A stretch of 64,000 bases of DNA from Escherichia coli (GCF_003018255.1 NZ_CP027440.1); one strand, 5' to 3'. Positions 42,461-44,428 are shown, counted from the first letter of the stretch. Program-made: numbers and translations. Notes: generated by a model from the sequence alone, not told the origin.

Positions 42461-44221
42461 TTAGCTATTTAACATTAATTTATAATGTTCCTTTATATCT
42501 TTTATAGCATCAAAAATACAACAAAATGCCTTAAAATCTATTTTCCGCTTTTTATCTCTAACAACCCTCATGGAAAAAATATGCTTCCCATATTCCGTTC
42601 TTGAGTCTCCATCATTATTTTTGTTGAATTTCTTACCATCAATCTTGATATCTAAAATATCTTTAGGGAAAAGATCCTCCATTGAAGTTTGTTCGCCGGA
42701 AGGACTCAATGGTGTGAGAACTATATATAAATTATAGAAAACATGAATATATTTCATCTTTCTCATTTCAGTTACATCGTCTGGGCAGCTTTTAACTTTA
42801 TTGCGCAGAAAATTAAGTAAATCGCTTGGACCTGTATCATTATCAAGAACCATAATCACTGGCTGTTTTGGAACAGAACCATAATAAGAAGCATAATTAT
42901 TTTTATAACGCTCTACAAATTTTTTCAGATCTGCAGTTCCCCCAGAAAGATCTAAAAAATATTTGGTCTTTTCATTAGATTTAAATATATTAAGATTTAT
43001 TTCTTTCTTTTTACTATCTGTTTTTTCTCTAAACAACTCAGGATATGATGTCTCCAAAGAATGCAAAGCAGCCTTCAAATATATCCGATCAGTCTTCCCT
43101 TCTGTAATTATCGTAGGACAGGTGTTGCCATGAAAAAATTTATAGTAAATAAATTTACTATATGCTTTTTCTCGCGCATTCAACTTTAATTTAAAACCAT
43201 GCAAAGTCGCATTAGTCAATACATATCTATCAGGTTGCTTGTTCAGTTTTTTCTTTATATTGTTAAACTTATCAACTTGATCAATAAAACCAAACATCCC
43301 CTCAAGTTTATCCAGACCTCCTGAAACTAAAACACCATTTTCATCTGGCACTTTATATTCACCTGTACGATACAAAGCATGTGCCAACGCCCGAGTTTTT
43401 TTATAATAACATCTATCAATATTAACGATTCTGTTAACTGTAAGTCCAGTTACTTCTTGCCTTGATGTCTTATACGTAAGCCTAGTCTTTGAATCATTTA
43501 TTTCGAATCCAGAGTTTTCTATTTCTTTTACCAAAACTTTTCCCAAAACAACCCCTTCAGGTTGCACAGTAGCCATTTCTAACGGAAATGTATTTTTATT
43601 TGTAGAAATTGTTATATCATCAGCATATCTGCTATAAGTACATCCATATTTTTTAGCCAGTTTAGCTAATCTCATATCCATAATATTGCAAATTAGATTT
43701 GAGATAATAGGAGAACATGGACTTCCCTGGGGGAGGGTTCCATTATAGCATGCAGCTTTTGCAAGTGTCGTTGCCACCACAGGATTTAATAAAAAATCCT
43801 GATTGGAAAGAAAATATCCTCTAACTCGTCCGAAATTAAAGCTTTCAAAAAAATTCTTAAGATCTATATTTAATATTATTTGTTTGCCTCTATGCTTATA
43901 AGCATTTAGGATTATTGATTTTCCCCTCTCAAAACCAAAGGAATAGTTGTTACTAATTTTCCTTATAGCAAAGATCTCATCTCTACAATCAGAAAGTAAG
44001 TCACATATTCTTCGTTGGATGTCCTTCAACCGGTCTGTAGGTGCAGAAATAGTCCTTACCCCTTTTCCTTTCTTCGGTATTGTAAATTGAGTGTATTGAT
44101 TATCCGAGCCGATTCTATATAGAACGTTAGTTAAAAATACCAACTTAACATCTAAAATTTTAGCCAAGTCTTCACGTGAAGTAGCAGCCCTAAGTGCGTC
44201 AAGTTTAGATGTTTTTGTCAT
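42461..44221 (-). CDS. ret: Retron-type reverse transcriptase with C-terminal Toprim domain (586 aa; Ec67 / Retron-Eco2-like)
   Basis: RT motifs ([12 protein letters not shown]; [12 protein letters not shown]) in the N-terminal half; Toprim signature (ITEGKTD ... VLDNDTG) in the C-terminal half; true start set to [15 protein letters not shown]... because the upstream 60 codons of the ORF overlie the ncRNA region. Confidence 0.9.
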
Positions 44222-44255
44222 TTCTTCTTCATCCCAGAGGAAAAAAGGCCAAGGA

Positions 44256-44392
44256 GAAACGCATGCAGGCACTCCTTCGCACAGCACACCTGCCGTATAG
44301 CTCTGAATCAAGGATTTTAGGGAGGCGATTCCTCCTGCCATTAAGGCCACTGGTTGCGATTCACAACCAACAAATCTGCCTACATGCGTGTT
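44256..44392 (-). ncRNA. msr-msd: Candidate retron msr-msd ncRNA bounded by a1/a2 inverted repeats
   Basis: a1 aacacgcatgtaggcag (44392..44376, minus strand) pairs with a2 gtgcctgcatgcgtttc (44272..44256), 13 of 16 complementary; two short stem-loops in the 5' part; about 35 bp upstream of the RT start. Confidence 0.5.
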
Positions 44393-44399
44393 TATGAAC

Positions 44400-44428
44400 A
44401 TATCACTTCAACTTTCTGTTTTCCAGAA
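44400..44428 (-). promoter_or_regulatory. Putative sigma70 promoter for the retron transcript (TTCTGG-17-TGATAT)
   Basis: A -10 TGATAT sits ~7 nt upstream of a1; the -35 is weak. Pattern match only. Confidence 0.3.

Follow-up and report, generated by a model that had tools for sequence, protein, structure and literature searches.

In the window analysed here, a 64,000-nucleotide stretch of Escherichia coli DNA (NZ_CP027440.1) in which positions are counted from the first letter, a 186-like prophage very probably carries the type I-C1 retron Retron-Eco2 (Ec67) as defence cargo, in the form of an intact allele. The protein differs from the Ec67 protein at two of its 586 residues, the non-coding RNA (ncRNA) is identical to that of Eco2, and the locus sits in the prophage with cos on one side and the portal gene on the other. 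[quoted passage not shown]

Retron Ec67 (Eco2) has been known since 1989-90 and its role in defence was shown in 2020. The structure of Ec67, its activation by DenB or A1 and its tRNA-cutting output were published in 2025-26 (PMC12916289, PMC12405507). Both the system and its location were known beforehand, and the mechanism has been solved; the identification of the locus is correct but ordinary, and its discovery value is small. The main use of the analysis is a clean annotation, in which the promoter, both inverted-repeat arms (a1 and a2), the branching guanosine, the msd and the true start codon are placed exactly.

The RT-Toprim protein and its two-residue variant

The gene encoding the reverse transcriptase (RT)-Toprim fusion occupies 42461..44221 on the minus strand and specifies a protein of 586 amino acids followed by a stop codon, an assignment that draws on the open reading frame (ORF) and on matches in the PDB, PADLOC and NCBIfam. 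The raw six-frame ORF is longer (646 aa, 42461..44401, minus strand), and the ATG at 44221 starts the 586-aa protein. In 13 genomes RefSeq annotates this gene with a length of 626 aa and a start located inside the msd, and the homologue from strain GF4-3 is annotated at 586 aa. Both the 626-aa RefSeq models and the 646-aa raw ORF run into the ncRNA. The initial annotation, which had dismissed the 60 extra N-terminal codons of the ORF as translation through this RNA, was correct on this point, with the true ATG at 44221.

The N-terminal RT domain contains D120 and, at residues 199-202, the YADD motif (43616..43627, minus strand). The Toprim nuclease domain extends over approximately residues 360-586, and its residues E374, D378, D460 and D462 are encoded within 42836..43102 (minus strand). 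These motifs were read from the translation: ITEGKTD corresponds to residues 372-378 and includes E374 and D378, while VLDNDTG corresponds to residues 458-464 and includes D460 and D462. The description of a 586-aa protein combining YADD with a Toprim signature is therefore upheld, with the three motifs at residues 199-202, 372-378 and 458-464. In the published work on Ec67, YADD 199-202 is named as the RT active site, and E374, D378, D460 and D462 are defined as catalytic through a dTOPRIM mutant (PMC12916289). D120, YADD, E374, D378, D460 and D462 are all invariant in a set of 122 full-length homologues.

Across residues 1-586 the protein displays 584/586 identity to the 'Retron Ec67 protein' in PDB entries 9I2F, 9I2G, 9S1F and 9LM3 (all PDB chains), the differences from the PDB sequence being D123N and K541R. 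The NCBIfam model NF038237 (retron_Ec67_fus) scored 704.4 bits against a cut-off of 450, and the top PADLOC class was RT-Toprim_I-C (718 bits, E = 1.5e-216), with RT-Protease_XI and RT-TIR_XII as runners-up at ∼322 bits. A protein search against retron RTs, which had been suggested as a check on the initial annotation, thus returned Ec67 itself, and together with the identical ncRNA these scores sustain the proposed Ec67/Retron-Eco2 identity. The exact 586-aa sequence occurs on 44 public E. coli contigs, where its database name is 'retron Ec67 family RNA-directed DNA polymerase/endonuclease'. The G+C content of the RT gene is 32%, compared with 50% for the whole window.

Relative to the gene of E. 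coli NCTC8623, the reference strain for Eco2, the window allele contains three nucleotide differences, which correspond to D123N, K541R and one silent change. Position 123 is located in RT motif A (NIDLK-D/N-FF). The reference Eco2, Ec86 and the E. coli homologue from GF4-3 (70% identical) all have Asp at the equivalent position, so a reduction in RT activity is possible on sequence. A weakened or dead allele, in which D123N with or without K541R cuts msDNA synthesis, would be non-defensive, or leaky and mildly toxic through an under-caged Toprim domain. This would be in keeping with the prevalence of Asp-123, found in 98 of the 122 full-length homologues as well as in Eco2, GF4-3 and Ec86, and with the dependence of trimer assembly on msDNA production (PMC12916289). 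Asn-123, however, is found in 22 of the 122 homologues, which belong to many lineages and share 45-74% identity with the window protein, and position 541 is freely variable in the same set. Judging from these homologues, D123N and K541R sit at naturally variable positions of the family. Furthermore, the ORF and all catalytic residues are intact in the window allele, the identical allele recurs on the 44 public contigs, and the ncRNA is without any change with respect to NCTC8623. The pattern of natural variation indicates that the window allele is most likely functional, and a weakened or dead allele is considered improbable.

Two further suggestions are speculative and judged to be improbable: N123/R541 may shift the yield or fidelity of msDNA, and hence the activation threshold or the basal toxicity of the caged nuclease, or a location directly downstream of cos and of the SOS-controlled operon may couple retron expression to prophage induction. 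Nothing in the analysis points to altered N123/R541 function or to induction-coupled expression. The allele adds a naturally occurring form, changed at two residues, of a protein that is used in genome-editing and ssDNA-production tools.

The msr-msd RNA and its promoter

The retron ncRNA, msr-msd, comprises 132 nt at 44259..44390 on the minus strand, and was delimited by identity to the Eco2 ncRNA of NCTC8623, by its fold and by covariation. An RNA position n is converted to its window coordinate as 44391-n. Alignment showed that msr-msd matches the NCTC8623 Eco2 ncRNA base for base, and that this identity extends from the promoter region to the start codon. The a1 arm (RNA positions 2-14; 44377..44389, minus strand) and the a2 arm (RNA positions 120-132; 44259..44271, minus strand), which were defined by a repeat finder and by covariation, are 13 nt long and display 92% complementarity (12 Watson-Crick pairs and one G.U pair), with 105 nt between them. 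The inverted repeat reported in the initial annotation is real and lies where it was placed, but its arms are 13 nt and not 17 nt; the 17-nt ranges are too long because they add unpaired flanks and the branching G at 44376, which must remain unpaired.

This branching guanosine, G15 (44376, minus strand), lies in a CAGA context and provides the 2'-OH that primes msDNA. G15 is the published branch point (PMC12916289, PMC12405507), and CAGA is the reported context of the Ec67 branching G (PMC6868368). The msr RNA stem-loop, rG20-rU42 (44349..44371, minus strand), is found in the minimum free energy (MFE) fold and displays covariation; in the reference complex it bridges adjacent RT domains within the trimer (PMC12405507, PMC12916289). 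The msd template was assigned to RNA positions 52-118 (44273..44339, minus strand) by numbering against published landmarks, and the encoded msDNA, derived from this template, is 67 nt in length, 5'-TCCTTCGCACAGCACACCTGCCGTATAGCTCTGAATCAAGGATTTTAGGGAGGCGATTCCTCCTGCC-3'. Indeed, G15, A16-U19, G20-U42, G43-U51, U51/G52, dT1, dA56, dT57 and dC67 all agree with the published Eco2 landmarks, in which U51 is a flipped base and reverse transcription terminates at G52:dC67 (PMC12916289). Similarly, msDNA positions 15, 17, 31 and 37 are occupied by C, matching dC15/17/31/37, the sites at which DenB cuts Eco2 msDNA (PMC12916289). It is predicted from the sequence that the window allele makes branched msDNA, in which the 67-nt DNA is joined 2'-5' to G15.

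The folding and evolution of the RNA are consistent with this assignment. The 137-nt RNA folds at -59.3 kcal/mol, compared with -40.8 ± 4.0 kcal/mol for shuffled sequences (z = -4.6), and 0/200 shuffles were as stable. Covariation was assessed in eight loci, comprising this window, GF4-3 and six diverged family loci at 55-86% protein identity. The a1/a2 helix is 100% paired in the eight loci, with four pairs changed on both sides, and the msr hairpin is 98.6% paired, with two pairs changed on both sides. The observed covariation score was reached by 0/500 shuffles, and in a control that slid the 3' partner the pairing fell from 90% to 34-47%. The predicted msd helices are just 74-90% paired across the homologues and were left out of the evidence. 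Their weak pairing fits the cryo-EM data, in which msDNA nucleotides 29-50 make up a three-way junction instead of a hairpin (PMC12916289).

A covariance-model or structure search had been proposed as a further check on the RNA. Searching 41500..46000 with Rfam 15 covariance models at E ≤ 1 yielded no retron msr match, the sole match over this interval being a chance lncRNA (E = 0.52). The Rfam null means that no curated model reaches the Eco2 ncRNA; it is uninformative and does not constitute negative evidence, and it is outweighed by the identity to the experimentally defined Eco2 ncRNA. The alternative that the enzyme comes from a group II intron or belongs to a non-retron class of defence RTs (Abi-P2, DRT or UG), the upstream hairpins being coincidental, was rejected as vanishingly unlikely, as the weak matches to Drt2 (42 bits against a cut-off of 390) and to group II intron RTs (58 against 300) are those expected of any RT and fall far under the cut-offs, and the reading is refuted by a protein near-identical to Ec67 and by an ncRNA that is the Eco2 ncRNA, with covariation.

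The putative promoter of msr-msd and the RT gene is an extended -10 element, TGaTATGTT (44397..44405, minus strand), recognized by sequence reading and conservation. Its end lies 6 nt before RNA position 1 (44390), and the TG, the T-A and the last T of the element do not vary among the eight aligned loci (T6, G7, T9, A10 and T14). The candidate -10 that had been noted immediately before a1 is thus present, at 44405..44397, with its key bases conserved in all eight loci. A consensus sigma-70 scan, in which a -35 hexamer was required, detected no site upstream of a1, and across the region the number of sigma-70 sites equalled the shuffle expectation, so the promoter call rests on conservation of the extended -10. 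From this conservation we infer that the element acts as a promoter and sets the transcript start.

The cos-portal slot and the host prophage

The whole retron cassette is AT-rich and ∼2.0 kb in length, and was placed at ∼42420..44452 on the basis of the homology break and the end of the portal gene, in agreement with its G+C content. Phage 186 and those P2/186-like phages and prophages that carry no retron lose their homology to the window at ∼44452, the portal ORF ends at 42419, and the G+C content is 0.31-0.34 across the cassette. The upstream edge of the slot is marked by a 19-mer equivalent to the prophage cos, GGCGTGGCGGGGATACGAG (44460..44478, minus strand), which was identified through alignment with 186. 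In this 19-mer, 15/19 bases are identical to the annotated 186 cos (NC_001317 positions 1-19), and the flanks align as well. The Q-to-cos cargo slot named in the initial annotation is therefore substantiated, as the retron is bounded by the cos equivalent at 44478..44460 and the portal gene end at 42419.

This location is a familiar one. Ec67 and Ec86 lie between cos and the portal gene according to Dodd & Egan 1996, as cited in PMC6868368, and in P2-like phages the cos-proximal slot is a defence hotspot (PMC9122126). In strain A16 the slot is occupied by an AAA ATPase and a DUF4435 protein. A comparison with 5426 complete E. coli genomes found most of the query in just 14; 13 of these display at least 98.9% identity and have a portal gene annotated under the match, and in the fourteenth, GF4-3 (74%), the portal gene is just downstream of the retron. 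In deposited phage genomes this retron was not found, and the matches were limited to the DinI/cos flank.

Comparison with the empty site in strain DETEC-S792 defined the prophage as a 34.6-kb insertion, ∼20158..54720. The insertion point falls in the 5' portion of a porin gene that has drpB and hchA on either side. It encodes an integrase of 399 aa, a Dam protein (48714..49634; TIGR00571 319 bits against a cut-off of 115) and a 186-type backbone that includes a repressor, a CII-like activator and DinI/Tum-like genes. Exact overlap between the two junctions is limited to six nucleotides, AAATGG, which belong to an imperfect repeat of ∼14-17 nt. Within 400 nt of the prophage ends there is no long perfect direct repeat, the best exact repeat being an 11-mer off the junctions. 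The original Ec67 element, which Hsu et al. in 1990 and Dodd & Egan in 1996 are said to have described, was reportedly a 186-related, dam-carrying element of ∼34 kb flanked by direct repeats, and the flanking repeat is said to be 26 bp. The initial annotation had likened the locus to that element, and a 34.6-kb insertion with Dam at 48714..49634 and a retron between cos and portal conforms in these respects to the ∼34-kb, 186-related, dam-carrying prophage that it envisaged; identity of the prophage with the original element is at most a possibility.

The retron cassette is the known one, while the prophage is a relative; at least one other Ec67 carrier, Z1323HEC0475, has its prophage at a different attachment site, beside rcdA, with a different integrase. 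The Z1323HEC0475 prophage (NZ_CP148326.1; next to rcdA/ybjJ) is 99.6% identical to the window over 2.4 kb, which covers the retron and both flanks, and displays the same order of Dam, replication endonuclease A, DinI-like gene, retron and portal. By contrast, its integrase is 350 aa and lies beside rcdA, compared with the 399-aa integrase in the porin gene of the window; it is also without the PAPS-reductase-like gene, and its RT contains an additional substitution, H341Y.

The genes around the cassette raise the question of partners. Dam, the PAPS-reductase-like protein and the SOS-controlled DinI/Tum-like genes are encoded within 5 kb of the retron on the same strand, and several carrier prophages show linkage of Dam to the retron, as would be expected if these genes and the retron constituted a multi-gene system. 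The conservation data make such a system hardly credible. Among six diverged homologues the one shared neighbour is a phage portal gene, found beside two of the six; the other neighbours are DUF3800/GIY-YIG, DUF927, HEPN/DUF4917 or Ogr proteins. The PAPS-reductase-like gene is missing from Z1323HEC0475, whereas the Dam and DinI-like genes are also found in the retron-free relative A16 and thus belong to the phage backbone. In addition, type I-C retrons contain one protein-coding gene, and Eco2 has been characterised as a single RT-nuclease fusion (PMC12916289). The neighbours were rejected as partners, as they are not conserved beside family members and cos separates them from the cassette.

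Mechanism and closest known systems

The mechanism outlined here for the window allele is modelled on the reference Eco2. The extended -10 promoter would direct a single transcript in which the RT-Toprim gene comes after the msr-msd RNA. After pairing of a1 with a2, the RT would prime on the 2'-OH of G15 (44376) and copy RNA positions 118 to 52, generating the 67-nt DNA and halting at G52. Three RT-Toprim proteins and three msDNAs would then assemble into a trimer that is predicted to be inactive because the DNA three-way junction cages the Toprim sites. In the reference system the complex is a C3 trimer of three RT-Toprim to three msDNA, in which the three-way junction cages the Toprim sites (PMC12916289), and an independent structure revealed the same 3:3 assembly, together with RNase activity and the DenB trigger (PMC12405507).

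During infection a phage DNA endonuclease, DenB in T-even phages or A1 in T5-like phages, would cut the msDNA, leading to its degradation. This step is modelled on the observations that mutations in denB let T2 escape, as mutations in A1 do for T5-like phages, and that DenB cuts the msDNA, the degradation of which exposes and reshapes the Toprim active site (PMC12916289). The uncovered Toprim sites would nick the acceptor stems of tRNAs and other RNAs, translation would halt and the infection would abort. In reference Eco2 the enzyme, once activated, nicks the acceptor stems of tRNAs as well as other RNAs and brings translation to a stop, and anti-phage defence requires the active site of the RT as well as that of the Toprim domain (PMC12916289).

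The closest characterized system is Retron-Eco2 (Ec67) of NCTC8623, which shares with the window an identical ncRNA, 584/586 residues of the protein, all catalytic residues, the order of ncRNA followed by RT-Toprim, and a location in the cos-portal slot of a 186-like prophage. The two loci differ in that NCTC8623 encodes D123 and K541 where the window allele has N123 and R541, and in that an extra gene, for a 353-aa hypothetical protein, lies between the DinI-like gene and cos in NCTC8623 and is absent from the window.

Retron-Eco1 (Ec86), a type II-A system, is a more distant relative. Its retron RT likewise contains YADD, the RT domains align at E = 1e-33, and it is reported to replace the same ∼180 bp, from cos to the packaging-gene terminator, in a 186-related prophage (Dodd & Egan 1996, as cited in PMC6868368). 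The effector of Ec86, however, is a separate N-glycosidase, and the system assembles into filaments and is triggered by msDNA methylation (PMC12916289); it is without a Toprim fusion. The P2 old/tin genes and the AAA ATPase-DUF4435 pair of A16 resemble the retron only in being anti-phage cargo in the same cos-adjacent slot (PMC9122126); the proteins and their mechanisms are unrelated to those of Ec67.

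Variable cargo flanking cos and dam

The cos-proximal region differs between the window and related prophages on both sides of cos. In strain A16, a retron-free relative, an AAA ATPase and a DUF4435 protein (6363..8573 of its locus, L004) occupy the slot that holds the retron in the window. Across cos from the retron slot, in the stretch from the DinI-like gene to cos, the Eco2 reference strain NCTC8623 has an additional gene for a 353-aa hypothetical protein (1674..2732 of its locus, L002) that is absent from the window, and the same gene sits in this position in 11 other retron carriers.

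A second difference lies beside dam, where a gene encoding a 336-aa PAPS-reductase-like (PP-loop) protein, at 47707..48717 (-), overlaps the ends of replication gene A and dam. The protein matched phrog_424, ‘phosphoadenosine phosphosulfate reductase' (1.4e-82), with weaker matches to PADLOC SspD (1.8e-23), BrxP and DndC. The gene is present in the window prophage but missing from the related prophages of the retron carrier Z1323HEC0475 and of A16, and is thus variable cargo adjoining a methylase gene.

Possible LexA box and terminator upstream of the retron

The exact LexA-box pattern CTGTTTATATTTACAG has a single match in the 64-kb window, at 45159..45174. A small phrog_698 ORF and the DinI/Tum-like gene (44683..44988) follow it downstream at a distance of ∼45 nt, an arrangement that resembles the p95 SOS operon in phage 186. 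As one match in 64 kb is at chance level (0.8 expected), it is only the position of this sequence pattern that is suggestive. In the interval that separates the DinI-like gene from cos, a hairpin rich in G+C with a stretch of T residues after it (GCCCGCCAGAACTGGCGGGCTTTT, 44524..44547 (-)) looks like an intrinsic terminator and is not among the calls of the terminator scan. If real, this candidate terminator would shield the retron from read-through of the SOS operon.

Ec67 gene models in other genomes

In near-identical genomes, RefSeq/PGAP gives the Ec67 gene product a length of 626 aa (12360..14240 in L001, the Z1323HEC0475 locus, and 3264..5144 in L002). These models begin 40 codons too far upstream, within msd, and therefore part of the ncRNA is annotated as protein. 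The annotated length of the diverged copy in strain GF4-3, 586 aa, is correct.

Prophage ends and tail-fibre segment

Comparison with the empty site shows that the prophage splits a porin gene between drpB and hchA-hprSR, with both junctions (20157/20158 and 54720/54721) inside the 5' coding part. The exact sequence common to the two junctions is only AAATGG, within an imperfect repeat of ∼14–17 nt. Between the integrase gene (52882..54081) and the right prophage end, a 161-aa ORF at 54122..54607 (+), for which searches of Pfam, NCBIfam, PADLOC and PHROGs gave no hit, could be cargo or no gene at all.

The window also contains an invertible tail-fibre segment (27534..30149), comprising a serine invertase gene (27534..28106 (-)), a tail-fibre C-terminal ORF on the opposite strand (28128..28664) and inverted repeats, 27 nt long and resembling Gin/Hin/Cin crossover sites in type (TTCTC..AAACCAAGG..), at 28156-28182 and 30123-30149, an arrangement that suggests host-range switching through DNA inversion.
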